From the NCBI RefSeq assembly GCF_054482595.1, contig NZ_CM137008.1: a stretch of DNA of 64,000 nucleotides; one strand, given 5' to 3'. Shown in pieces: positions 30,442 to 47,463 of this stretch (position 1 is its first letter; every line of letters begins with the position of its first letter). The notes beneath the pieces are model-generated. The model saw nothing but the letters and a program-made list of their open reading frames with translations. It did no database searches and was not told the DNA's origin. The position numbers and the translations under genes were made by a program.

Positions 30442-32431
30442 ACAACTGGTATTACATAATTTTCGGGTATTTAACGGTACTCACACGATTGATCTGGCTC
30501 CAAGAAAGCGACCACATGAAGTAAACCCTCGTCCGATTGTGCTGTTTGGCGGTTTAAATGGTGCAGGTAAAACGTCTATTCTGTCGGCTATCCGGCTGGC
30601 ATTGTATGGGCGGCTGGCATTTGGGCTCGCGACTCAGCAACAGGATTATATTGAGCATCTTAGTTCGTTGATTCACAAAGGTGCGTACTATATTGAGCAA
30701 CCGGAAGAGGCGGCTGTTGAACTGACCTTTACCTATAATAAGGGTGGGCAGGAATCAGAGTTTACTGTTACGCGAACTTGGAAAAAGGGCAAGAAAGATC
30801 GCCTTTCTTTACAAAAGGATGGCCAACCACTCAGTGAACTGGATTATGATCAGTGCCAGGGGTTTCTTAATGAATTAATTCCTCATGGTATTGCTGATTT
30901 GTTCTTTTTTGATGGCGAAAAAATTGCGGAACTGGCAGAAGATGAATCTGGCAATATTTTGCGCACCGCTGTACGCCGTTTATTGGGCCTGGATCTGATA
31001 TCCAAACTGCGTAATGACTTAATGATTTTCGTTAAGCGCCAACAATCCAGCCAGTTAGCGGAAACTCAGCAACAGCAGATTGAAGTGCTGGAAAAACAAA
31101 GTAGAGACTTAGCTTGTCAGACAGAAGCATTGCTGGAAAAAGCTGATTTTGCCAAATCTAGAATCGAGTTTCTGTCTAAAGACATTATTCGCTATGAAGG
31201 CTTGTTGAATGCGCAGGGCGGTGCATTTGCGCAGACAAAAGCGCAGGAGAAGCAGAAAGTTGAAACACTGCTAAAAGATAAGGAGCGCCTGGAAAAAGCA
31301 CTGCGTCAGGAATGTGATGGATCATTACCTTATGCACTAGCTCCCAATATTTTATCCGAGTTGCTGGAAAAAATTGCTGATGAAACGCAGATCAAACAAG
31401 CTCAAAGCTTTGAAAAAGAGTTAAGGCTATTTTTGGCCCAGCTCAGAAACGATATTGCATTACGCTCTCGTACTACCAGTAAAATTGCAGCCGAGGCGAT
31501 TACTGATAATCTGAACGAATATATGGCAACTAAGCCGAAGGGCGATTTGTTGTTTGATATTTCTGAACGTGAAGCCGGCATGCTCCAGCAATCAATAGAG
31601 CAGGACAGTAAAAAGGCATGGCAGCGCTTCGAGCTTTACCGTATTCAGTTAGCAGAAATTGAACAGCAACTAGAGCAAGCCGCTGCCAATATTGCCCGCG
31701 CTCCGGAAGATGAGCAGTTAATGGATCTTTTTGAAAAGCTGCGCGATCTTGATAAGCAGCGTGAAAATCAGCGGCAAAAATATCTTTCATTGCTGGAAGA
31801 CGCTAAACGGGTTAAGCAACAGCAACTGGATTGTGTCCGTCAGGTGCAAAAACTGCATGATGCGGCCCGCAGTCAGCATGGCTTTAGTAGCGCCTTCAAA
31901 AATGCGCAGGAAACAATTAATTTACTCGATCGGTATAGCGACGTATTAACTCAGGCGAGAGTAAAGACGCTATCTGCTAACTTTGAAGTTGCCTATCGCA
32001 AACTGGCTCGTAAAGAAGATATGCAACTGAGTGCTCATATTAACCCAGAGACATTTGACGTTGAGTTAATTGATGAGAAGGGATCTGTCATTAATCGTAA
32101 GTTACTATCTGCCGGTGAAAAGCAGATTTATGCCATTGCTATTCTTGAGGCGCTAGCAAAAACTTCTGGTCGTGATTTGCCGGTGATTATTGATACGCCA
32201 TTAGGACGTCTGGATTCACAACATCGGGATAAACTAATTAACCATTATTTCCCATTTGCCAGCCATCAAGTGGTGCTATTGTCTACCGATACGGAAGTGG
32301 ATGAACGTTATTTTGTTGACCAATTACGTGATGATATTTCTCATGCTTACGAGATAGTATTTAACACGCATACTAAATCATCAGCGTTGAAGCCCGGTTA
32401 TTTCTGGGAATTAACTAAGGAGGCTATCTGA
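30383..32431 (+). CDS. dndD: DndD, SMC/ABC-like ATPase
   Basis: 682 aa; Walker A GGLNGAGKTS, long coiled coil, C-terminal signature and Walker B (LSAGEKQ...VIIDTPLGRLD). True start may be GTG 30431 rather than ATG 30383. Confidence 0.85.
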   Translation: MSMPANPLYWSARKTNVLIKQLVLHNFRVFNGTHTIDLAPRKRPHEVNPRPIVLFGGLNGAGKTSILSAIRLALYGRLAFGLATQQQDYIEHLSSLIHKGAYYIEQPEEAAVELTFTYNKGGQESEFTVTRTWKKGKKDRLSLQKDGQPLSELDYDQCQGFLNELIPHGIADLFFFDGEKIAELAEDESGNILRTAVRRLLGLDLISKLRNDLMIFVKRQQSSQLAETQQQQIEVLEKQSRDLACQTEALLEKADFAKSRIEFLSKDIIRYEGLLNAQGGAFAQTKAQEKQKVETLLKDKERLEKALRQECDGSLPYALAPNILSELLEKIADETQIKQAQSFEKELRLFLAQLRNDIALRSRTTSKIAAEAITDNLNEYMATKPKGDLLFDISEREAGMLQQSIEQDSKKAWQRFELYRIQLAEIEQQLEQAAANIARAPEDEQLMDLFEKLRDLDKQRENQRQKYLSLLEDAKRVKQQQLDCVRQVQKLHDAARSQHGFSSAFKNAQETINLLDRYSDVLTQARVKTLSANFEVAYRKLARKEDMQLSAHINPETFDVELIDEKGSVINRKLLSAGEKQIYAIAILEALAKTSGRDLPVIIDTPLGRLDSQHRDKLINHYFPFASHQVVLLSTDTEVDERYFVDQLRDDISHAYEIVFNTHTKSSALKPGYFWELTKEAI

Positions 32432-32787
32432 TGCTCCCGAATCGAATGGTGCTGAATCGTCAGACTGAAGAGCAGCTTAAAAGATTGAAAGGGTATACAG
32501 GGATCACACCTAATGTCGCTGCCCGATTGGCATTTTTCCGCTCGGTGGAGAGTGAGTTTCGCTATTCATCAGAACGGGATAATCGGAAACTAGATGGTTC
32601 GCTGGTGTTGGATAAGATTACGTGGCTGGGGGAGACATTACAGACTACGGAATTGGTATTGAAGATGCTTTATCCGCAGTTAGCTCAGAAGGATATGGTT
32701 AAAGCATGGGCTGCGCATGTGGAGGATGGGATTGCGGCGTTAAGGAATCATAAGAGTCTATTAAACTTTATTAAATCAATAGATTAA
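32431..32787 (+). CDS. dndE: DndE
   Basis: 118 aa small protein, 1-nt TGATG overlap with dndD; size and position fit DndE. Confidence 0.7.
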   Translation: MLPNRMVLNRQTEEQLKRLKGYTGITPNVAARLAFFRSVESEFRYSSERDNRKLDGSLVLDKITWLGETLQTTELVLKMLYPQLAQKDMVKAWAAHVEDGIAALRNHKSLLNFIKSID

Positions 32788-32795
32788 GAATTTTT

Positions 32796-32826
32796 AGGCC
32801 ATCCAAATTAACAATATGGATGGCCT
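32796..32826. terminator. Candidate hairpin terminator between convergent dndE and the DGQHR gene
   Basis: 10-bp perfect stem AGGCCATCCA...TGGATGGCCT with 11-nt loop; weak U-tract, so uncertain. Confidence 0.35.
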
Positions 32827-32845: not shown

Positions 32846-33439
32846 TTAAAAATCTGTTTTGACATTTTCGTTTAAATAATCATATATTTTTCGCTGACCC
32901 ACAGTTGTTGATGTATACTCTGTATTTTTTGTAAACTCCTCAGGATTCACAGTTTTCAATGCAGAGCACAGCTTTTCAATATTTTCTTTGTTAATTTTAG
33001 GCATGTCCATCAATTTTTTACGTAGAAACTGAAATAATGCAGAAATACCGACAGATCTAACTAACACTGTGCCTTTCTCAATACATACATTAGCCCAAAA
33101 ATGATCTTTTATCGCTGAAAAATAAATTTTCAATATTTGCTCTATCGCCTTATCATTGCCTTTTATATAAAACCATCGCAATGGGCTTTTATCCTTGCTG
33201 TTTTTATTATCAAGCCTGCCCCTTCCTTTTTCTTTTTCATCCGAATCAATTGCATTGATGGTATATCTATCAGCACGAGGGTTTTTAGATATTAGTGATA
33301 ATACACCATCAATAAATACAGACGATGATATAGACCAGTCATTTTCAGTAATTTCATTCAATACTCTATTTTTTAATCGTCTGTAGAAAGGATATTCATC
33401 TGTTTTATTAAATTTCTCACTAAAATATACAGCAAGCAA
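32846..33439 (-). CDS. DndB-like DGQHR protein, C-terminal ORF of a gene split by an in-frame TGA
   Basis: Same frame as 33701..34006; the open frame upstream of this ORF contains IIDGQHRLLGF; low-GC region. Confidence 0.6.
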   Translation of the reverse strand: MLAVYFSEKFNKTDEYPFYRRLKNRVLNEITENDWSISSSVFIDGVLSLISKNPRADRYTINAIDSDEKEKGRGRLDNKNSKDKSPLRWFYIKGNDKAIEQILKIYFSAIKDHFWANVCIEKGTVLVRSVGISALFQFLRKKLMDMPKINKENIEKLCSALKTVNPEEFTKNTEYTSTTVGQRKIYDYLNENVKTDF

Positions 33440-33700
33440 ATCAGGAGGCCAATACTCTCTGGATATATCATCAAGAGAGTATCCAAAGAGTCTATATGCT
33501 AAACTTTTAGGAACTTTTTGTTGGTTAAAATTAATTGTTGAAAATATAGTTGCTTGATTGGATGGTGGTAATGAGTTATAAATTGAACAAGGTAATTGAA
33601 TATCTTTATTCTTAGCATACTTAAATCCTAATAATCTGTGCTGTCCATCGATAATAGAACATAATCTTAGATTTATATTCGGTATTATTATCTTATATAA

Positions 33701-34006
33701 TCAATTCTCACTTTTTTTAAACTCCCATTTGTCATCTTCCTTTGCAGGTGTACCATCTTCATTATGATTGACAGAGAGTATGATTGAGTTTGGAAATGCA
33801 GCCTCATCGGAGTCTATGAATTTTGCTATGTCTAAGGCTCTTGGCATAGACTCTTTCCTCTGCACACCTGATATTTCCCCATCATCCATTTCCGCCTGAT
33901 TCACATAAATACATTTCAATAAATCTTCGGCAGACATAACCGTCTGAAAGAATTCGCCGTATGGTTGGGTGACCTTAATTGCATGGATCTCAATAGAATT
34001 AGACAT
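33701..34006 (-). CDS. DndB-like DGQHR protein, N-terminal ORF (ends at in-frame TGA 33701..33703)
   Basis: 101 aa aligning by eye to the DndB N-terminal region; start ATG directly abuts the stop of the upstream membrane gene (TAAATG). Confidence 0.6.
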   Translation of the reverse strand: MSNSIEIHAIKVTQPYGEFFQTVMSAEDLLKCIYVNQAEMDDGEISGVQRKESMPRALDIAKFIDSDEAAFPNSIILSVNHNEDGTPAKEDDKWEFKKSEN

Positions 34007-34525
34007 TTATAGCCCCTCACCTGGCTCATCATTAGAACTCATATTCCTTAATTCATCAGACACTAATGAATCTGGAGTTACAGGGATTTTAAAATCAGGC
34101 TTAACAACGGTAATGGAAAACCATAATATTATAGTTATAATAAGTGATGAAATTAACATGAAATTGACGTCATTTTTTAATCCAAAAAATAAAAAAACAA
34201 ATGATATGAACCATAAAAATATTGAACAAGATATTCTAACTTGTTTACGGTGCCTTTCAGATAAAGAAATAGGATTTTCGTTCTCGTCATCTCTGGATAA
34301 ACACTCCGCGGCTAATACGCCCAATGTGGTAATAATAAATGAAAAAATAGAAAAACCCAACTGCGTATTATCTTTTAAAAATAATGGGCCAATCCATATT
34401 CCGCAGGTTGATACAAATAATGTCACCAAAGATATAAAAATAAATTTTGGCTGAATAATTCTTGGATATAATCCTAAGATATCTTTCCACAAGTTCACCC
34501 AATGTATCATATCATTTCTCGACAT
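34007..34525 (-). CDS. Small 4-TM membrane protein of unknown function
   Basis: 172 aa with four hydrophobic helices and acidic C-terminus; 37 bp downstream of dptH on the same strand; low-GC. Confidence 0.55.
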   Translation of the reverse strand: MSRNDMIHWVNLWKDILGLYPRIIQPKFIFISLVTLFVSTCGIWIGPLFLKDNTQLGFSIFSFIITTLGVLAAECLSRDDENENPISLSERHRKQVRISCSIFLWFISFVFLFFGLKNDVNFMLISSLIITIILWFSITVVKPDFKIPVTPDSLVSDELRNMSSNDEPGEGL

Positions 34526-34562
34526 GCTTTTTACCCTAACCTTGTACTATCTACAAAAATAA

Positions 34563-37500
34563 TCAAAAAACAAGCTCCCAAAACGCTCTATCTCGCATCT
34601 TGCTAACCCGCTTATCCCCATCAACATACAGACTGAAATGTTTTTCAAGCTGCCGAATCTGCCCCATTAACGACTCCTGTTCGCCCTTATCATCCACGTT
34701 GAATACAGCCTTGATATCCGCATTTTTAATTTCGGACACACGATGAATAACCCAGGTTAGAATATATGAAGCGTAATTGTTCTCTCCAGTTTTGAAGTGG
34801 GTAATTTCCTGCGTTGACAGGATCGCTCCAACACCATATTCACGACCTTCCTTAAGGATCTTCCTCAGACTGGAAAAGTCCTGGCGCATAAAGTTATCTG
34901 CCTCATCCACCAGAATCATCTTGGTGAGCTGACGATAATCCCCCTGAATCACTGGCTTGCCGCGTTTTTGCATTTGTGCATAAAACAGATCCAGGGTTAG
35001 CGCAACCACCAGGTTTTGAATCTCTGATGAGTAGCCAGCCAATTCGATAACTGTGACACCATCCACCAGATCATACAGACTCGTCATTTTCTCTGGGTCT
35101 GTTTCAAATATCTGAAACCCAGCTAAGTTATAAAGCGCGGCGTACAATGAGTCTTCTTCTACTTTTTCCTGAGCCAGATATCGCTGCCACACATCTTCTA
35201 TGGTCGGTGCAACACGGTTCCAGGTTGAGCGATCATGAGGCACTATTCCTGCTAATTCATAGCACTCCATGATTAGCGTAACCAGTTTCATACGCTGTTT
35301 CACACCCAGGTTATAGGCTTTCCCCATTGTTTCAGAAAATGCGATTGCGGTATGTCTGGGTAACATGGGCATATCACCAAACAGTGACAAAGGGTTATAA
35401 GGTAGTAACGATAATTGATATTTCTTACCGCCAGTAGCCTTCAGAAAAGCCTCGTCCACATAGTCAGATTTATAATCAAAGATCAGTAAACCAATCGATT
35501 TTCCATCAACGTTACAGGATTGGTTACGCATTAATTGTGTCACCAGCGATTTGGTAAATTGCGTTTTCCCGGTCCCCATCGTACCGATGATGCCTGTGTT
35601 GGTATTCATAAACTTCGTGGTGTTGGTCGGTTCCCAGAATAACGGGGTTTGCCGTGTAGCGTCATGACCAAATAATACTTGTAAGGGTACAGTGCTGACC
35701 TCTGGTGTCGGCTTTGGAATATCAGGTCGTGTGTCTGGCGGTGTCGTTACCTGCACTCCCGATGCTGATGGAGATGGGTGCTCATCACTCTCTGGCTTCA
35801 GACGGTATTTATCTGGTACCCGGTAGCGTTCAGCCAATGGCAATTTACCTTCACGGGTAGTGATTAACGAGGATAGTAATGAATAAGGAATTTCGATCTG
35901 TAAGATATTCGCTGTCGTCTCTTTATAGGAGAGATCGAAGCAAGATCCGCTGTCTACATGTGCAACAACAAAGCCATTAGCATAGTCTTTTAACTCACCC
36001 AACTGATAGTCACCGGTCAACCACCATTCGCGGCGATCCAACAGGGGAGCCAGCTTATCACTGTCCAGCACACCGTACAGCTGAAGTTTCTCTACCTGCA
36101 TCAGCACCTGTCGAATAAAGAGCGCGCGATAAAGTTGCGATGCCAGTGTATGCGGCTCCAGAATATCCTGCTGTAAATAACGTTTAAGCTCAGCAGCCTG
36201 CTGGCCCGCATAGTTGTAATCTGGTCGAGCGCCGGTTTTGACTTCCAGCGGCAGTAAATAGAGACGGTTTTCTTTAAAACCAACAAAGAGCACATCATCA
36301 GAGATTGCGCCTTTACGGTACCCCTGTAGATTTCTTGATAAATCGCTTTCCTTCATCTTTAGCCCGACGTTACCAGATACGCGAATCATTTCGGCTACAG
36401 ATAGCGGTACCCAGCAGATATCAGACTCACTCAGCATGGACTGTACAAATTTATACGCGCCAATGATGCCATATTTCTCTTTGCGCTCTTTTTCACTGGA
36501 GCGCAACATCTTCAGCAACCACTCACCGTTAAAAGCATTAAATTCGGCAAGTAGATGCTGGCTATCAACGGCAGATTGCCCGGACTGGCTTTCGGTCTGG
36601 AGCAGGCGGAGGAATAGATCGACCTGCTTCGTTACCGTCACTGCATCGTAGCCTGCACAACTAGTGTACTGATCGGAATAGTGGATCAGCACAACATCTT
36701 TCTGGCTAGTAAAGAAGTCAAGAGTAACTTTAGGGTCAATAATGGTGGTCCAGAGTGCACTGTTGTAAGAATAATTGAGTAGCTGTTTAAAATTGCCGCT
36801 TACGGCCAATCCAATCCCTTGTCCGTGGTATTGACTGTTGCTCTGACGCGCTGGCTGCCACAGGCAGCCCACTAACCGGGCAAGTCGTAGAGCGCAGTAA
36901 GATTCAGTATCAACATTCCGCAGGCCAAACGCGGTAAAGTAAGCATCCCCCTGTGTTTCAGCTCCTTCTCCGGAAATCAGCCCATGACACAGTACACCGC
37001 TGGCAGCATCCTCAATGCGGATCTGGCGGCAATCCACCGGAGCTGTATTGGTGAAAAACGCCAAATGTGCATAGGCCAATTTGTCGCTTTCTGACGGCAG
37101 GACAAATTTGCTGAACGTTAACCGACTGCGTAACAGGTCAATCAGCATATCGGCCTCAGCTCGCCACGCACCGCGGTTCAGGTCAAGGTCGTTTTTAAGC
37201 TGTTCATAGCTGCCACTCTCGGCAAAGCGATCAAACATATTTGGCAGCAGGCGTTCATCGTAGCAATTTACATGCACCGAAATAGCATGCTCTTTTTCCT
37301 GCTTAAAATATTCCACTAACCCCAGAAACAGTTCTTTCGCTGTTCCCTGATTAATAGCATTAATAATCAATGCATTGTTTCCGGGACTCTGAAATAGCCG
37401 GGCGTAGGCTTCGGTAAATTCATTGAGCTTGTCTTTTACCAAACGTTTTACGTAATCGTGGCTCACCTGGCGCTGGGGAACGACATCGATCCAGAAGCGA

Positions 37501-39638
37501 TTTTCTTCCACCGGCTGCAACTGTGCGTATTCGTGTTCACTGTGGTAAACGAATGGCATCAAGCCGGACACCACCAGACGATCAAGCGTAATGGTCGGTA
37601 GTGTGGCAAATGACGCTGAGTCGTATTGTTCCTGCTCTGCGCAGATAGTTTGTACCAGTTGTAAATGGTAGGCCAACACTAGGGGATGCAACGGGGAGAG
37701 ACGTTCATGACTGTCGACATTACAAATACCCAGATGCAGCAGGCGCTTTTCCTGCGCTGTTAACGCTCTGCTCAACTCGATTTGTTGAAGCGCCTGTTCA
37801 AAGGTCGTCACTATATGGCTTACCAGCGCGCAGTATTCTGCTGACCACGATACTAGGCTAGGTAAAGTACCGCAGCGCTGGTAGTAGAGGAATAATTGGT
37901 CGTAGGCGTTATAGAGATCGGGGTGGATGGCAACGAGTTCATCCAGCGCAAACGCGCTATCGTCATCTCCTGTCCCCAAAAGACGTTGATCAACTAATGA
38001 GGCTTCCAGCGCCAGTAACTGCTGGCGAACACCGACAACCTTGTGTTCGGTATTATCAAGAATGATACGACCCTTCAATCGGTTCCAGGACGCATTCCCG
38101 TCTTCTTTGAACAGTTTATTGAAACGACTCTGGTCAAAAAGTAGCGGTAAGGTTAACCCTTCTTCGGCTCCCGGCCCTTCGATATTGAATGCCAGACAAG
38201 AATCACCTGAAACAAGCTTAAATTGGATCAGATCGCTTTGATTTGCCAGTGTTTCAAAATTCACCAATGCATAATGCTGGCAGTCAATATCACCATTTTC
38301 TTCATCCAGTATACAGACTTGGCTACCCGACTCAGCGATTCGTAGTTCGTTGTCTTCGCGTTGGAGTGTGATTTGTGGTTTACCTGGCTCGATACGGAAA
38401 CAATGCTGAATATCGTCTAGCCAGAATTGTCCTTGTCTGACCAGTAACAGGCGGAACTTGTACTCTTCGGCTGAATTATTGCGATTAGTCAGTTCGAGGC
38501 TAAAGAAGCAGGGATTCCCATCGAAAGGAACCGACGCCATAATACGGGAGCTTTTACCCCCTGCACGACTAATTCGCCAGAAACGCTCTTTTTTTAACTG
38601 ACGATGATGCGCAATTTTTATCTGGTTATCCTGAAGATCGTTGCCCTGAAAGCAAAACTCCAGCTCAGTTTGCGATTGTTCGGGTGGTACCTGTACCAGT
38701 AGGCTGATATCGCGCTTGCCTGCTTTACTTGCGCTTTTCGCCCGTTGCCAAATCACGCCATTTTCGACCGTGATATCATCCAGTACCAGTTTTTGTTCGC
38801 GGTTCTGTTCTTTTTCGTTTAGATAAACAGCGAAATCAAGCTCGCGCCAGTCGTCTTTATCATTGAAATGTTCCTGAATAAATTTGGCGCTGAATTCAGT
38901 TAATACGTTCTCCAGTTGCCCACTGTAGCGTTCAACGCTGTCCTCGATTTGACGAAATAACTTCCTGTTTTCATTCAGTCGGGTATGGAGCTGTTTCTGG
39001 CTAAAATTCAGTAGTTCATCATCTTTAAACAGCGATAGCTCGGAGAAATCCAGATTGCCGTCATCCAGCAGGCGATACAACGACGAGAAGCCAAATACGG
39101 TCGCACCTTCATCCAGTACCGTTGTTCGTTGATCCTTTAATAAGCAACGCGACAACTCTGAACGGTTGTTGTCCGTCGTGATCAACTTTTCCAATTCATG
39201 ACTGAAGGTTTCGGGGTGCCAGATAGCTCCCGGTGCCGCGACGTCTTTTGTGCTGTTAATCAGGGTGTCCAGCATGCTGTTATGAATAATCAGCAGTGCA
39301 GTTTTGGCAAACACCCCGCTGCGGCCAGCAACTTCATCGCGTAAATGGGATATGTAGTTTTCCGTGAATGCTGGCGCTGCGGCTCCGTGCAGCACCGGAA
39401 TAAGCTGAATACCATTACAGGAGAGACAGGCAAGGCGCTGCTCTGGCGCAATTTCCAGATGATTGTCACCTGCCAGGTCAACAAAAGCCTGCCAGAGTTG
39501 TAGAGCATTGTCAGGGTCAGGAGATTTAAACTGGTAACGCTCACCAGGTTGAATAATGCCACTAACCCATTCAATAAAGGTTTCCGCCAGATAGGTTTCA
39601 TACTGTTTTACGGACATACACGGCGTCTCCACTGTCAC
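34563..39638 (-). CDS. dptH: DptH/DndH-like large restriction component with C-terminal HerA/FtsK-type ATPase
   Basis: 1691 aa; C-terminal Walker A GTMGTGKT and Walker B ILVDEADN; third gene of a co-oriented set of three whose sizes match DptF/G/H as I recall them. Alternative start ATG 39617. Confidence 0.65.
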   Translation of the reverse strand: MTVETPCMSVKQYETYLAETFIEWVSGIIQPGERYQFKSPDPDNALQLWQAFVDLAGDNHLEIAPEQRLACLSCNGIQLIPVLHGAAAPAFTENYISHLRDEVAGRSGVFAKTALLIIHNSMLDTLINSTKDVAAPGAIWHPETFSHELEKLITTDNNRSELSRCLLKDQRTTVLDEGATVFGFSSLYRLLDDGNLDFSELSLFKDDELLNFSQKQLHTRLNENRKLFRQIEDSVERYSGQLENVLTEFSAKFIQEHFNDKDDWRELDFAVYLNEKEQNREQKLVLDDITVENGVIWQRAKSASKAGKRDISLLVQVPPEQSQTELEFCFQGNDLQDNQIKIAHHRQLKKERFWRISRAGGKSSRIMASVPFDGNPCFFSLELTNRNNSAEEYKFRLLLVRQGQFWLDDIQHCFRIEPGKPQITLQREDNELRIAESGSQVCILDEENGDIDCQHYALVNFETLANQSDLIQFKLVSGDSCLAFNIEGPGAEEGLTLPLLFDQSRFNKLFKEDGNASWNRLKGRIILDNTEHKVVGVRQQLLALEASLVDQRLLGTGDDDSAFALDELVAIHPDLYNAYDQLFLYYQRCGTLPSLVSWSAEYCALVSHIVTTFEQALQQIELSRALTAQEKRLLHLGICNVDSHERLSPLHPLVLAYHLQLVQTICAEQEQYDSASFATLPTITLDRLVVSGLMPFVYHSEHEYAQLQPVEENRFWIDVVPQRQVSHDYVKRLVKDKLNEFTEAYARLFQSPGNNALIINAINQGTAKELFLGLVEYFKQEKEHAISVHVNCYDERLLPNMFDRFAESGSYEQLKNDLDLNRGAWRAEADMLIDLLRSRLTFSKFVLPSESDKLAYAHLAFFTNTAPVDCRQIRIEDAASGVLCHGLISGEGAETQGDAYFTAFGLRNVDTESYCALRLARLVGCLWQPARQSNSQYHGQGIGLAVSGNFKQLLNYSYNSALWTTIIDPKVTLDFFTSQKDVVLIHYSDQYTSCAGYDAVTVTKQVDLFLRLLQTESQSGQSAVDSQHLLAEFNAFNGEWLLKMLRSSEKERKEKYGIIGAYKFVQSMLSESDICWVPLSVAEMIRVSGNVGLKMKESDLSRNLQGYRKGAISDDVLFVGFKENRLYLLPLEVKTGARPDYNYAGQQAAELKRYLQQDILEPHTLASQLYRALFIRQVLMQVEKLQLYGVLDSDKLAPLLDRREWWLTGDYQLGELKDYANGFVVAHVDSGSCFDLSYKETTANILQIEIPYSLLSSLITTREGKLPLAERYRVPDKYRLKPESDEHPSPSASGVQVTTPPDTRPDIPKPTPEVSTVPLQVLFGHDATRQTPLFWEPTNTTKFMNTNTGIIGTMGTGKTQFTKSLVTQLMRNQSCNVDGKSIGLLIFDYKSDYVDEAFLKATGGKKYQLSLLPYNPLSLFGDMPMLPRHTAIAFSETMGKAYNLGVKQRMKLVTLIMECYELAGIVPHDRSTWNRVAPTIEDVWQRYLAQEKVEEDSLYAALYNLAGFQIFETDPEKMTSLYDLVDGVTVIELAGYSSEIQNLVVALTLDLFYAQMQKRGKPVIQGDYRQLTKMILVDEADNFMRQDFSSLRKILKEGREYGVGAILSTQEITHFKTGENNYASYILTWVIHRVSEIKNADIKAVFNVDDKGEQESLMGQIRQLEKHFSLYVDGDKRVSKMRDRAFWELVF

Positions 39639-40927: not shown

Positions 40928-42577
40928 CTAACCCTCCATACCGCTAATGGTGATCATGTCGTCGTCCGCTTTAGCGCGATAAACTCGCCGCCCACCAGCA
41001 TAAAACTTGATTTCGCTGCTGGATTTGGCCTGTTCAGTAATCAAATCAACGATTTCGTCCAGTAGAACAATGGCATTTTTATCGTATTTATTGGGGCGAT
41101 AGCCATTGTTTAATTTGTTCAAAAGTTCAAATAAATTAAGTCCGATACGAACTGGTAACAGAGAGTTTTGCCCAACTTTTAAATGCACGTCGAAGCCAGT
41201 AGGGTGGGCCGTATTTTTATTGCGGATGGCCTCCCAGTCAGGTTTCAATTCGACTGGCGCGGTTATTTTTACCCCACCATATTCACCTAAAAAGAACTCT
41301 TCTTTTTGCATACTCAATTCCGGCGCTTTGCGGTTTGCATAGCGCTGAATACCAGCAATAAGTTCGGATGTATAAAACCGGTTCAGTGCTTTTTTCTGCT
41401 CTGAGTCAGCGATGTAATTTTTGTGCAGATGCCAGATTTCTGAATAATGCTCAAATAAAGATTCATTGAAGAATACGGAAAATTTCTGATGATAATTATT
41501 CCCCAGAGATTCATCCTGCAGCAACCAGAAGAGCCGAATTAATGAAGCCGCATCACCCGGATTAACGCACTGGCGATCAAATCTAATGTGTAATGGCGCG
41601 AGTGCAGCTAAAAAATCATCCAGTTCAGGGTCAACCAGGCCCAATTCGTAGCGCAAAATAAACTGATCGATTTCATAGGTGTGCAGCCTAGCAGGATCAA
41701 AATCAGAAACTTTTTTAATCAGGTCGTTTTCTGCCCCAGTGAAAAGATTATCAAATAAATACCCCGGCCCCATAAGCAAATGATGCAGAAAATCCAATAG
41801 AGTTCGGGTTGTCACAAACTGATCTTTAATCAGGCGGGCCTTAAAGAGCTGAGTGATGAGAACATCCTGAACACCCGGCAGACAAAGTAATTTATAGTTA
41901 GCAACTTCTTTCAGCTCAGGGTTAACGGTCTCATCATGTCGAAAAATAAACTGAAACAAATTACTATCATCATTACGGGTTAAATTATCCAGTAATGTTT
42001 TAATAAACGATGAATACTGTTTTTTTTCATTAAACTGGAATTTAGGGTAATGCTCAAAGTCAAAAAAAGAACAATGCCCACTGCGGTATGGGCGGCTTTC
42101 TTCCTGATCTGCTGACAAGAAAGAATCGATCGCAGTGCGGATCGCCAGATGGCATTCAGCACCTTCTCTGGCAAAATTGGCGAGCATCCCGGTATTGATG
42201 CCTATAAGCAAAGGAGATGAGTATTGGTGATGATTGCTAAATAAATCATTTAAAGCATCAATAGCTGATTGCCGGGGAGCAAAGCTGTGTGTTGCATCCA
42301 GATGAAAACTAAAGCGCTGCTGATAACGAGGGTTTGACTTACAACGGGTCAAAATTTCGGACTTTCCATCACCACTACTGCCACACAAAAAGATGATTTC
42401 ACCGGGCTTAGCAACATCCAGATAACGTTGCAGCTCAGTTTCAATTTCTTGTTTAACAAAGAGTTGTTCTTTTAACTGATCGAACTCATCCTTTTGACGA
42501 TGCGTTACCGTGGTTACGGAAAACGAAGATGACTTCGCAAGTACACCCAACGCTTTACGTAATGTGATTGCGCTCAT
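40928..42577 (-). CDS. dptF: DptF/DndF-like P-loop ATPase
   Basis: 549 aa; Walker A LCGSSGDGKSE near the N-terminus; first gene of the three-gene operon. Confidence 0.6.
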   Translation of the reverse strand: MSAITLRKALGVLAKSSSFSVTTVTHRQKDEFDQLKEQLFVKQEIETELQRYLDVAKPGEIIFLCGSSGDGKSEILTRCKSNPRYQQRFSFHLDATHSFAPRQSAIDALNDLFSNHHQYSSPLLIGINTGMLANFAREGAECHLAIRTAIDSFLSADQEESRPYRSGHCSFFDFEHYPKFQFNEKKQYSSFIKTLLDNLTRNDDSNLFQFIFRHDETVNPELKEVANYKLLCLPGVQDVLITQLFKARLIKDQFVTTRTLLDFLHHLLMGPGYLFDNLFTGAENDLIKKVSDFDPARLHTYEIDQFILRYELGLVDPELDDFLAALAPLHIRFDRQCVNPGDAASLIRLFWLLQDESLGNNYHQKFSVFFNESLFEHYSEIWHLHKNYIADSEQKKALNRFYTSELIAGIQRYANRKAPELSMQKEEFFLGEYGGVKITAPVELKPDWEAIRNKNTAHPTGFDVHLKVGQNSLLPVRIGLNLFELLNKLNNGYRPNKYDKNAIVLLDEIVDLITEQAKSSSEIKFYAGGRRVYRAKADDDMITISGMEG

Positions 42578-45926: not shown

Positions 45927-47192
45927 TTACTGTTTTAATGGATTATTAATCTTTGCATATTCAAATGGACTGATAAATTTTTCTCTGTTTGCATCCAGAA
46001 AATCGGCCCACCATTGTAGCATCAAGCGGCGTTCTTCCAGATGCTCTGCTTTATGGATATACGCGGCCCTCACTGAATTTCGCTCCATGTGGCTCATCTG
46101 ACGTTCAACAGCATCACGAGACCACAAACCTGATTCGACCAATGAACTACAGGCCATTGTTCGAAAGCCATGACCACAAACCTCTACTTTTGTATCATAC
46201 CCCATGACCCGTAACGCACTATTTACCGTATTCTCACTCATGGGTTTGTGCGAATCGTGATCACCAATAAATATCAAGTCATGGGCCCCACAAAACTGTT
46301 TTATCTGCTTTAAAATTGCAAGAGCTTGCGTTGAAAGAGGCACTAGATGCGTTGTACGCATTTTTGAGCCTCTATGGGAATGTTTCACTCCAGGAATAGG
46401 CTCCCGCTCCGGTGGGATAGTCCATATAGACGCTTCGAAATCGATCTCTGACCAACGAGCAAAACGCAGCTCACTGGACCGAATAAAGATCAGCAAAGAG
46501 AGTTCTGTCGCCCATCGGGTTAGCGGCCTACCAGTATAGCTATCTATTTTTGTAAGCAACTCAGGGATGCGCTTTAATTCAAGCGCGGGACGATGTTGTC
46601 GATTACAGGAAGCAACCGCCCCAGCCATCTCTTGTGCCGGGTTATAATCAATTAACCCACTTTGCACTGCATAGCGCATGATGGCTGTAGTGCGCTGCTG
46701 AAGACGAGCGGCCACTTCAAGACGTCCAGACATTTCTACGGCCTTAATGGGTGCTAATAAATCTCGAGTTTTTAACTCAGCGATATTACGTTCACCAAGC
46801 GCTGCAAAAAGATTATCTTCCAGACTTTTTAGCACACGATGGGCGTGATCTTCAGACCACTTTTTATTGGTGCCATGCCACTCAATCGCGACTTCTTTAA
46901 AGGTTCGTGCTTTACTCTGTTCAACCTTATCATTTTTCTTTTTGTCTCCCGGATCGACGCCATTCGCAAGCAGCTTACGCGCCTCGTCACGACGTACTCT
47001 GGCATCCGCTAGTGTGATTTCAGGATAAACCCCAAGTGCCAGCATTTTTTGCTTTCCCTCATAACGGTACTGCAAACGCCAGTACTTAGAACCATTTGGA
47101 TGGACAAGCAGATGCATACCGCCACCATCAGTCAGCTTATATTGCTTATCCGTTGGCTTGGCTGCTCTGACTTTGATATCTGTTAATGCCAT
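45927..47192 (-). CDS. intB: P4-type tyrosine integrase next to leuX
   Basis: 421 aa; N-terminal AP2-like DNA-binding region and C-terminal catalytic region with conserved R...HGFR...Y; immediately 3' of tRNA-Leu. Confidence 0.9.
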   Translation of the reverse strand: MALTDIKVRAAKPTDKQYKLTDGGGMHLLVHPNGSKYWRLQYRYEGKQKMLALGVYPEITLADARVRRDEARKLLANGVDPGDKKKNDKVEQSKARTFKEVAIEWHGTNKKWSEDHAHRVLKSLEDNLFAALGERNIAELKTRDLLAPIKAVEMSGRLEVAARLQQRTTAIMRYAVQSGLIDYNPAQEMAGAVASCNRQHRPALELKRIPELLTKIDSYTGRPLTRWATELSLLIFIRSSELRFARWSEIDFEASIWTIPPEREPIPGVKHSHRGSKMRTTHLVPLSTQALAILKQIKQFCGAHDLIFIGDHDSHKPMSENTVNSALRVMGYDTKVEVCGHGFRTMACSSLVESGLWSRDAVERQMSHMERNSVRAAYIHKAEHLEERRLMLQWWADFLDANREKFISPFEYAKINNPLKQ

Positions 47193-47378: not shown

Positions 47379-47463
47379 TGGTGCCGAAGGCCGGACTCGA
47401 ACCGGCACGTATTTCTACGGTTGATTTTGAATCAACTGCGTCTACCGATTTCGCCACTTCGGC
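47379..47463 (-). tRNA. leuX: tRNA-Leu (anticodon CAA)
   Basis: Reverse complement reads GCCGAAGTGGCGAAATCGGTAGACGCAGTTGATTCAAAATCAACCGTAGAAATACGTGCCGGTTCGAGTCCGGCCTTCGGCACCA; CAA anticodon loop, long variable arm, encoded CCA. Confidence 0.95.

Follow-up and report, generated by a model that had tools for sequence, protein, structure and literature searches.

A conserved membrane protein and DGQHR protein cassette attached to DNA phosphorothioation loci, with a decaying copy in an Escherichia coli dnd island

INTRODUCTION

Between the convergent dndE and dptH genes of an Escherichia coli DNA phosphorothioation island lie two genes on 1.68 kb of AT-rich DNA, and their presence raises the question of whether they belong to the Dnd defense system, form a module of their own, or are a remnant. 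They were studied in a window of 64,000 nucleotides (nt) (RefSeq assembly GCF_054482595.1, contig NZ_CM137008.1), and positions given without a locus number are those of this whole stretch. A preliminary description, made from the sequence, had read the insert as a second DndB-like DGQHR gene, broken by one in-frame TGA and coupled to a gene for a membrane protein with four transmembrane (4-TM) segments. The comparisons reported here show that the insert represents a two-gene cassette that is both conserved and mobile. Its first gene encodes a small inner-membrane protein of four helices, and its second gene, translationally coupled to the first, encodes a cytoplasmic protein of family TIGR04172 (here DGQHR-1) with a ParB/sulfiredoxin-type N-terminal domain. 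The two genes, named from the 5' end of their strand, are as follows.

34007..34525, minus strand: membrane-protein gene, 172 amino acids (aa), four helices, intact in the window
32846..34006, minus strand: DGQHR-1 gene (TIGR04172), 386 codons, a pseudogene with one nonsense codon

RESULTS AND DISCUSSION

Conservation, coupling, and mobility of the pair

A scan of one genome per species gave 80 loci with relatives of DGQHR-1, and 3 more were added for a set of 83. These loci come from Gamma-, Beta-, Alpha-, and Deltaproteobacteria, Campylobacterota, Bacteroidota, Acidobacteriota, Nitrospirota, Gemmatimonadota, Verrucomicrobiota, Lentisphaerota, Chloroflexota, and Saccharibacteria. All 83 have an open reading frame (ORF) of 140 to 210 aa with three to five hydrophobic segments directly upstream of DGQHR-1 on the same strand, which answers the question of co-occurrence that the preliminary description had raised. 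A jackhmmer search started from the 172-aa window protein against the 8545 six-frame ORFs of the 83 loci retrieved one ORF per locus, and it was always that upstream ORF; one plasmid example adds to this strict pairing.

The two genes overlap by 4 nt (ATGA) in 34 of the 83 loci, nearly all others are within about 20 nt of each other, and related loci share a GGAG-rich junction together with the ATGA overlap. In the window the junction is TAAATG, with the TAA stop of the membrane gene followed directly by the ATG of the DGQHR gene (gggctaTAAATGtct). The pairwise distances of the membrane proteins follow those of the DGQHR-1 proteins (r = 0.79, rising to 0.84 to 0.92 in subsets), a correlation reached by none of 500 permutations, and the corresponding values for DGQHR-1 against DndC and DndD are 0.43 and 0.18.

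Exchange of the cassette can be seen within a single species. The same slot of E. coli strain 135 (locus L004, 4137-5830) holds a pair that is about 35% identical to that of the window (membrane protein of 179 aa, DGQHR protein of 383 aa), and the 3' end of dptH next to it is 91% identical, which is direct evidence of cassette replacement; across E. coli, the dptH 3' ends before exchanged cassettes are 91 to 98% identical. Base composition sets the segment apart as well. The G+C content is 0.321 for 32846-34525, compared with 0.457 for dndBCDE and 0.453 for dptFGH, the values at third codon positions are 0.27 to 0.28 compared with 0.40 to 0.49 (dndD, dptH, and dndC), and the cassette is the lowest-G+C 1.68-kb stretch across the 64-kb window. 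The impression that the insert is more AT-rich than its flanks is thus borne out by calculation, and the separate acquisition proposed on that ground fits the G+C content, the swapping of cassettes in the E. coli slot, and the weak co-variation with dndC and dndD.

The DGQHR-1 family also occurs on plasmids. The mobilizable 35-kb plasmid pAU20f of Aureimonas sp. AU20 (locus L091, 2865-10248) carries a compact system with dndC, a gene for a small protein, dndD, a gene annotated as "DNA translocase FtsK" (DndE::HerA type, 507 aa), and a TusA gene on one strand and the membrane and DGQHR-1 pair in divergent orientation.

The DGQHR-1 protein

Profile scores were computed on the repaired protein, with the TGA read as a sense codon. 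This protein matched TIGR04172 with 472.3 bits (cutoff, 450), with residues 7 to 383 aligned to positions 1 to 381 of the 381-position model, which NCBIfam lists as a hypothetical equivalog under the name "DNA phosphorothioation-associated DGQHR protein 1"; RefSeq gives the same name to the intact E. coli allele. Members of the family are expected to have phosphorothioation genes nearby, and this gene lies between dptH and dndE; a functional member is expected to have an intact ORF, and in the window the frame is interrupted by the TGA at codon 102.

The protein scored 163 bits against the DGQHR domain model TIGR03187 (cutoff, 58.85), and the sole Pfam match was DndB (PF14072; 8.8e-9). The DndB equivalog model TIGR03233 did not match it at an E value of 0.01 or lower, compared with 462 bits for the window's dndB, and the BLASTP alignment between DGQHR-1 and the window's own DndB was limited to the DGQHR pentapeptide. 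A second DGQHR protein is therefore present, as had been proposed, but its likeness to DndB is remote. The DpdB model NF041060 gave 77.1 bits (cutoff, 300) over residues 6 to 217 only, and the PADLOC DpdB model gave 70.7 bits. Neither an HNH nor a DUF1524 domain was found with NCBIfam, PADLOC, or Pfam, the C-terminal domain had no nuclease-like fold match, and searches of PADLOC and PHROGs returned no defense system model or phage family for either cassette protein apart from weak DpdB and ParB matches. By these profile matches, the DGQHR-1 gene is a catalogued member of a family without an assigned function and is not DndB.

The motif that names the family has the following position.

33635..33649, minus strand: codons of the DGQHR pentapeptide (residues 120 to 124), 3' of the stop codon

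Invariant residues across 23 diverse members are Q49 and R50, the pentapeptide D120 G121 Q122 H123 R124, and F155 and N159 (FxxxN). The equivalents of QR, DGQHR, and FxxxN in the related DUF262/GmrS domain have roles in nucleoside triphosphate (NTP) binding and hydrolysis (PMC4619093). An AlphaFold model (mean predicted local distance difference test [pLDDT] score, 87) has a single ParB-like domain and a C-terminal helical domain, and its structural relatives were ParB, Noc, KorB, and sulfiredoxin only, all of them weak. The family comprises 493 representatives at 50% identity (E value of 1e-30 or lower); a look for domain fusions that might hint at a function gave none, as the scanned variants of 509 to 656 aa carry extensions without a Pfam domain, and one more variant has a repetitive, pentapeptide-like tail.

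The DGQHR gene has been noticed before. TIGR04172 was found in 2011 by phylogenetic profiling (ProPhylo), which placed the family in 7 of 7 dnd-positive genomes and, for Serratia odorifera, listed a member flanked by DptH and DptE (PMC3226654), and one to three hypothetical genes have been described between dpt and dnd in E. coli dnd islands (PMC4373003). The suggestion that neither gene had been described in Dnd/Dpt clusters consequently fails for the DGQHR gene; no description of its partner was found in the literature searched. A reappraisal of Dnd systems pools the proteins of the DndB superfamily and does not mention a membrane partner (PMC10853773).

The membrane protein

Hydropathy gives four hydrophobic segments in the membrane protein, and the AlphaFold model has helices at residues 26 to 49, 54 to 77, 88 to 117, and 121 to 140, in keeping with the 4-TM topology first proposed. 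Lysine and arginine residues number 11 on the N terminus, central loop, and C-terminal tail compared with 2 on the short loops, a distribution that suggests an N-in/C-in protein with its N terminus, central loop, and acidic C-terminal tail in the cytoplasm. The family is very divergent (14% mean identity) and keeps a GxxG(I/V)W motif in helix 1, an acidic residue ending helix 2, a WWxxN motif after helix 4, and a hydrophobic-G-G motif in the tail. Matches above about 70 bits to the family profile are all 143 to 195 aa long, with a few shorter ones that are fragments, and none has a Pfam domain. Proteobacterial members end in GxGL, whose codons fall on the ribosome-binding site for DGQHR-1, so that it may not be a protein motif; as a candidate docking motif it was set aside as probably a by-product of that GGAG-type site.

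No match to the protein was found in NCBIfam, PADLOC, or PHROG. Its RefSeq name is "accessory gene regulator B family protein" where the DGQHR gene is annotated as split and "hypothetical protein" in strains with the intact allele. The Pfam model AgrB (PF04647) does match it (E = 3.6e-5, residues 34 to 137), on model positions 80 to 182 only. The catalytic His and Cys of AgrB are in its N-terminal half, which the match leaves uncovered; 2 of 69 members of the membrane family match AgrB, and others match unrelated membrane families with similar scores. An AgrB identity was rejected on these grounds, and we regard the RefSeq name as spurious.

Neighborhoods in other genomes and the dptH-dndE slot

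The pair keeps company with modification genes. A dndC or dndD gene was found within 10 kb in 76 of the 83 loci, and several of the 7 exceptions are limited by contig ends. The dptF, dptG, and dptH genes were all detected within 10 kb in roughly one-quarter to one-third of the loci, and the pair therefore tracks the modification genes and not dptFGH. Among the 73 loci in which the gene upstream of the membrane gene could be assigned, 41 have one with a HerA/FtsK-type domain homologous to the DptH C terminus, which is either a full-length DptH or a DndE::HerA/FtsK fusion of about 510 aa. The Dnd reappraisal cited above had already noted this fusion class (PMC10853773). Seven loci have the pair behind a PbeD-like dnd_assoc_4 gene of a pbeABCD-like set, and in Bacteroidota and Betaproteobacteria it is co-oriented at the end of a dndC-dndD-dndE::HerA operon. 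These arrangements show that, in many phyla, Dnd systems carry the cassette at their 3' end, behind DptH, a DndE::HerA/FtsK fusion, or PbeD.

Other genes can be added at the same place. Several dptFGH loci have a phosphorothioate-DNA-binding SBD-HNH endonuclease between DptH and the pair. In Vibrio panuliri (locus L006, 8449-9318) the gene between DptH and the membrane gene encodes an SBD-HNH restriction endonuclease (NF045808, 373 bits), and about five other loci with dptFGH upstream have a similar gene of 290 to 300 aa at that position. Prevotella sp. oral taxon 376 (locus L042, 7965-12695) has the order dndC, dndD, DndE::HerA/FtsK (536 aa, with matches to DndE and to CedB/TraC-type ATPases), membrane gene, DGQHR-1, and a pAgo/Aga-like gene (509 aa; PADLOC pAgo, 1e-34).

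The 15-kb plasmid pTR3_1 of Acinetobacter sp. TR3 (locus L092, 3277-5051) encodes a distant DGQHR protein that scores 210 bits against the DGQHR-1 profile. The gene ahead of it encodes a 207-aa protein that has three or four hydrophobic segments and is not detected by the membrane family profile. This pair lies directly 3' of genes for a BglII/BstYI endonuclease, a C protein, and a Dam-type methylase on a plasmid that has no dnd genes. There are thus hints that membrane and DGQHR pairs also attach to methylation-based restriction-modification systems.

The dptH-to-dndE slot is a hotspot for ParB-superfamily defense cassettes. In E. coli S51 and CFSAN061770 (loci L003 and L005, both 4146-6879) it holds, instead of the pair, a DUF262 protein (PADLOC NsnA-like, 396 aa) and an ABC/OLD/GajA-like ATPase (NsnB/HEC-04-like, 512 aa). 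The equivalent slot of Salmonella Cerro 87 holds dndI, which is cotranscribed with dndFGH (PMC4198939). DndI has a DUF262 (ParB-like) domain and an HNH domain, uses its N-terminal domain to sense phosphorothioate, and can defend with dndBCDE as its only partners (PMC11662687).

The stop codon and decay of the window copy

Translation through 32846-34006 gives 386 codons with a single stop, at codon 102, and contains IIDGQHRLLGF; the ORFs 33701..34006 (101 aa) and 32846..33439 are in the same frame, and this agrees with the joined product of about 386 aa expected from the preliminary description.

33701..33703, minus strand: in-frame TGA at codon 102 (GGA [Gly] to TGA, G-to-T at window position 33703)

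An intact sense-codon allele, which had been suggested as a check, exists. E. coli RM8082 (locus L002) has GGA at codon 102 and differs from the window at 3 of 1161 positions of the DGQHR gene and 6 of 1680 over the cassette, and several other E. coli strains also carry an intact allele. The 61-mer around the TGA is identical in 106 of the 124 complete E. coli genomes with the cassette, and because so many complete genomes share it exactly, the TGA is not a sequencing error. The remaining 18 differ at one place in the 61-mer, and at least 7 of these are annotated as intact. Carriers of the cassette include O157:H7 strains, strain 55989, and many animal and human isolates.

The alignment column of codon 102 falls in a variable, gap-rich loop in which relatives have Gly, Asp, Ser, Asn, or a gap. 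The base after the TGA is T, which makes it a strong stop context in E. coli, and there was no structured RNA downstream (fold z = -0.6). Between the TGA and a TTG at 33439 there is no in-frame ATG, GTG, or TTG, and that TTG is past the DGQHR motif; in the AlphaFold model the break falls within the single ParB-like domain, ahead of the motif. Selenocysteine insertion or programmed recoding at the TGA was ruled out, given the intact GGA allele, a column that is not conserved as TGA, and the lack of downstream structure.

Further lesions are found in strains with the stop-split annotation. The membrane gene of strain AR436 is destroyed by an 11-bp insertion, the DGQHR gene of EC5 and others is interrupted by ISEc23, and insertions of IS1 and ISKpn26 also occur; in strain 537-20 the match at the TGA site is 1 base shorter, and the copy is still annotated as split. 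Between E. coli and Enterobacter, the DGQHR gene has a ratio of nonsynonymous to synonymous substitution rates of 0.06 and the membrane gene one of 0.09, values that indicate strong purifying selection. The window's membrane gene is intact and has two derived amino acid changes relative to the RM8082 copy. The window's DGQHR gene is therefore a recently inactivated, decaying remnant, with secondary lesions in several stop-split strains, and at most the membrane protein is still made from this cassette. Of the fates that had been considered for the insert, decay is the right one for this copy.

RefSeq does not name the split gene consistently. Its N-terminal fragment appears either as "DNA sulfur modification protein DndB" or as "ParB N-terminal domain-containing protein" (locus L001, 9176-10855, and others), and the C-terminal fragment is a "DGQHR domain-containing protein" with a noncanonical start 9 nt after the TGA.

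Island layout and junctions

The window contains an E. coli genomic island inserted at tRNA-Leu(CAA), a tRNA and integrase boundary that matches those of the leu-tRNA dnd islands of E. coli 55989 and B7A (PMC4373003). The cassette occupies the gap between dptH and dndE, on the dptFGH strand. The surrounding features are as follows.

27725-32787, plus strand: dndBCDE
32431..32787, plus strand: dndE (TIGR03184, 77.9 bits), last gene of the dndBCDE operon and convergent downstream neighbor of the cassette
32796..32826, no strand assigned: stable hairpin between the convergent DGQHR and dndE stops, 17-nt inverted repeat, -19.6 kcal/mol, z = -4.3
34013..34018, minus strand: Shine-Dalgarno-like GAGGGG of the DGQHR gene, within the last membrane gene codons (G-E-G-L)
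34526..34562, minus strand: spacer of 37 nt from the dptH stop to the membrane gene start
34563..39638, minus strand: dptH (dndH; PADLOC DndH, 2854 bits), neighbor upstream of the membrane gene
42577-34563, minus strand: dptFGH
45930-47192: integrase gene, adjoining tRNA-Leu(CAA), island boundary marker
47379-47463: tRNA-Leu(CAA), island boundary marker

The HerA matches of the dptH product are at residues about 1320 to 1690 and mark a C-terminal HerA/FtsK-type ATPase domain, the kind found most often ahead of the cassette in other genomes. The preliminary description had placed a 172-aa 4-TM gene 37 bp after the dptH stop, on the same strand and with the TAAATG junction, all of which is in the sequence, as are the other features that it stated as fact. 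It had also proposed that dptFGH, the membrane gene, and the DGQHR gene form one transcript. That is plausible in view of the 37-nt spacer, in which a consensus terminator scan found no terminator-like site, and of the cotranscription of dndI with dndFGH in Salmonella (PMC4198939). At the other end of the cassette the hairpin has a 10-bp G+C-rich stem and is probably a bidirectional transcript end; the terminator scan missed it because its predicted loop of 11 nt exceeds the limit of the scan and its T run is weak.

An antisense ORF at 33969..34454 (161 aa) was taken as spurious, since the DNA there is AT-rich and its other strand encodes the conserved membrane protein. DptF (40928-42577) matched a PADLOC "Type II restriction enzyme" model (PDLC03556) over its full length with 1192 bits, compared with 785 bits for the DndF models, which looks like redundancy in the model library. 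Another very low-G+C patch (about 0.33) lies at 61600-63511 and contains a 598-aa ORF (61715-63511, minus strand) without an NCBIfam match.

Proposed function

From the architecture of the pair and its surroundings we infer, with moderate confidence, that it may act as a membrane-anchored ParB-fold NTPase, an accessory reader or effector of Dnd defense. The two proteins of an intact pair would form a complex anchored in the membrane, in which DGQHR-1 would resemble its relatives DndB, DpdB, SspE, and DndI in binding NTP and DNA and would read the phosphorothioate status of the DNA. The membrane partner might be a Noc-like tether that keeps this reader next to the HerA/FtsK-type DNA motor, at the site on the inner membrane where foreign DNA comes in, or it might itself be the output and disturb the membrane, in the way that RexB serves RexA. 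Dnd defense would thus have in the cassette an accessory effector arm that is optional and exchangeable, a functional counterpart of DndI in which a membrane protein replaces the nuclease. An effector-type role is favored because the slot otherwise holds the DUF262 and ATPase pair in E. coli and the phosphorothioate-sensing DndI in Salmonella.

A bolder form of this proposal, which we consider possible and put forward tentatively, is that the pair is a self-contained phosphorothioate-reading defense module acting at or through the membrane, by depolarization of the abortive-infection type or by blocking or capturing entering DNA. The pair would then be a further class of phosphorothioate-dependent effector beside DndFGH, PbeABCD, and DndI/SspE, pluggable behind any of them, with a distant form behind methylation-based restriction-modification systems, and its repeated inactivation in E. 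coli could reflect an autoimmune cost under partial phosphorothioate modification.

Several observations weigh against a reader or effector at the membrane. In DptH-type loci the distances of the cassette and of the HerA domain correlate poorly (r = 0.25), which disfavors a tight physical adaptation of one to the other. An AlphaFold prediction for a fusion of membrane protein, (GGGGS)6 linker, and DGQHR protein, made with a paired alignment of 27 sequences, gave no sign of docking and no support for a defined complex (predicted template modeling score, 0.46; pLDDT of the tail, below 50), and physical interaction of the pair is therefore deduced from the genetics only. A nuclease or pore signature was recognizable in neither protein in the NCBIfam, PADLOC, and Pfam scans, and full-text literature searches found no functional study on any member of either family. 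In 52 of the 83 loci there is no second DGQHR-domain ORF within 10 kb of DGQHR-1, a finding that suits a DndB-like regulatory role equally well. Pedobacter ginsenosidimutans (locus L034, 9528-13535) has the pair without dnd genes within 10 kb. The stop allele is very recent, with 0.4% divergence or less from the intact allele, and because of this the case for decay is made by the stop and the scattered lesions, not by accumulated substitutions. The Pedobacter pair is followed by a 730-aa protein with a BbrUII/HgiDII-like N terminus and a GHKL/histidine kinase-type ATPase C terminus.

The main rival, a regulatory one, would make DGQHR-1 a modification regulator of the DndB type that acts by binding to dnd promoters or by restricting the ATP available to DndCDE, with the membrane partner sequestering or releasing it; in E. 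coli it would be redundant with the true DndB and would therefore have been lost. The loci without another DGQHR or DndB ORF and the co-oriented pairs at the end of dndC-dndD-dndE::HerA operons in Bacteroidota and Betaproteobacteria would suit such a role, as would the tolerance of its loss in a genome that keeps dndB and the function of DpdB as the ATPase of a modification machine. DndB itself is an ATP-modulated repressor (PMC4507180). Nevertheless, DGQHR-1 and DndB have only the motif in common and coexist in 31 of the 83 loci, a repressor would not normally be tied by translational coupling to a polytopic membrane protein in 83 of 83 loci, the cassette can be swapped and correlates poorly with dndC and dndD, and the other occupants of the slot, the E. 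coli DUF262 and ATPase pair and DndI (PMC11662687), are effectors, so that we judge regulation unlikely. The link to dnd could also be positional and not functional if the pair were a selfish, addiction-type or dnd-independent cassette of defense island hotspots. Its mobility, low G+C content, exchange within one slot, presence on plasmids, the Pedobacter locus, and the distant pair beside a type II restriction-modification system on the dnd-free pTR3_1 all point that way, yet this is improbable for a pair that has dndC or dndD nearby in 76 of 83 loci of many phyla (with several exceptions limited by contig ends), that was found in 7 of 7 dnd-positive genomes by ProPhylo (PMC3226654), and that sits consistently at the 3' end of dnd-associated operons.

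Two other rivals concern the window's genes themselves. The TGA allele might still function in a tuned or attenuated state, through low-level UGA readthrough or through the 101-aa fragment together with a reinitiated C-terminal fragment, and it is indeed present in 106 of 124 carriers among diverse strains, with both halves open and annotated by RefSeq as two coding sequences. The open frames are uninformative because the divergence is so small, and the replacement of an ancestral GGA in a variable loop, the absence of a structure 3' of the stop that resembles a selenocysteine insertion sequence or any other, the strong stop context, the lack of a canonical start ahead of the motif, the break inside a single domain, and the insertion sequences and indels that accumulate in stop-split copies make a working split gene highly improbable. 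That the membrane protein is an AgrB-type peptidase and the pair a peptide-signaling unit is scarcely credible. The Pfam match and the RefSeq product name speak for it, but the match omits the catalytic half, NCBIfam gives none, the RM8082 copy is named a hypothetical protein with only two residues different, and the idea is effectively refuted by the 2 of 69 family members that match AgrB and the others that match unrelated membrane families.

Significance

Neither the universal coupling of DGQHR-1 to a dedicated 4-TM family, nor its placement behind HerA/FtsK-type, Pbe, and Dpt modules, nor its positional equivalence with DndI was found described in the literature and libraries searched. We rate the pair as belonging among the phosphorothioation-associated proteins of the ParB/sulfiredoxin (Srx) superfamily. 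Dnd systems pose a puzzle in that about 12% of sites are modified and yet the host is spared by restriction, and in that dptFGH is absent from many dnd clusters. A protein of the ParB fold that is obligately tied to a membrane protein and appended to three kinds of phosphorothioate system is an uncharacterized component that could explain where in the cell phosphorothioate is discriminated or how systems without an obvious nuclease act. E. coli offers a natural knockout in the window allele and a natural intact allele, six bases apart, and the role of the pair is directly testable because such near-isogenic alleles exist. The 16.6-kb "dndBCDE-FGH" fragment cloned from E. coli B7A (PMC10470545) is long enough to include the insert. 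The RefSeq names "DndB," "ParB N-terminal domain," and "DGQHR domain" for the fragments and "AgrB family" for the membrane protein are misleading.

Comparison with known systems

The closest counterpart is TIGR04172 itself, with which the window protein shares an end-to-end match and the dptH-dndE position seen in Serratia odorifera (PMC3226654); the window copy differs in its nonsense codon, and the family definition is silent on both function and membrane partner. DndB (TIGR03233), the ATP-modulated repressor of dndBCDE, has in common with DGQHR-1 the DGQHR domain, the QR, DGQHR, and FxxxN motifs, and linkage to dnd, but it differs in position and strand and lacks the 4-TM partner that is always beside DGQHR-1. 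DndI/SspE, in which a DUF262 domain (a ParB-like NTPase and phosphorothioate sensor) is fused to a DUF1524 HNH nuclease, occupies the same slot, 3' of and co-oriented with dndH and beside dndE, is likewise accessory to dndFGH, and shares with DGQHR-1 the ParB/Srx superfamily and the DGQ(H/Q)R motif. DGQHR-1, in contrast, is without an HNH or other nuclease domain and has a different C-terminal helical domain and a membrane protein as its partner. DpdB (NF041060), the DGQHR ATPase of the 7-deazaguanine DNA modification system, resembles DGQHR-1 in its DGQHR N-terminal domain, but it belongs to a different system and lacks a membrane partner. For the pair as a whole the likeness is one of architecture. 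RexB of phage lambda is a 4-TM protein of about 144 aa driven by a cytoplasmic sensor of DNA state, and Noc, an NTPase with the ParB fold, anchors DNA at the membrane; RexA/RexB and the Noc/ParB cytidine triphosphatases are thus analogous in layout to the cassette, and ParB, Noc, and KorB are the best fold matches of DGQHR-1.

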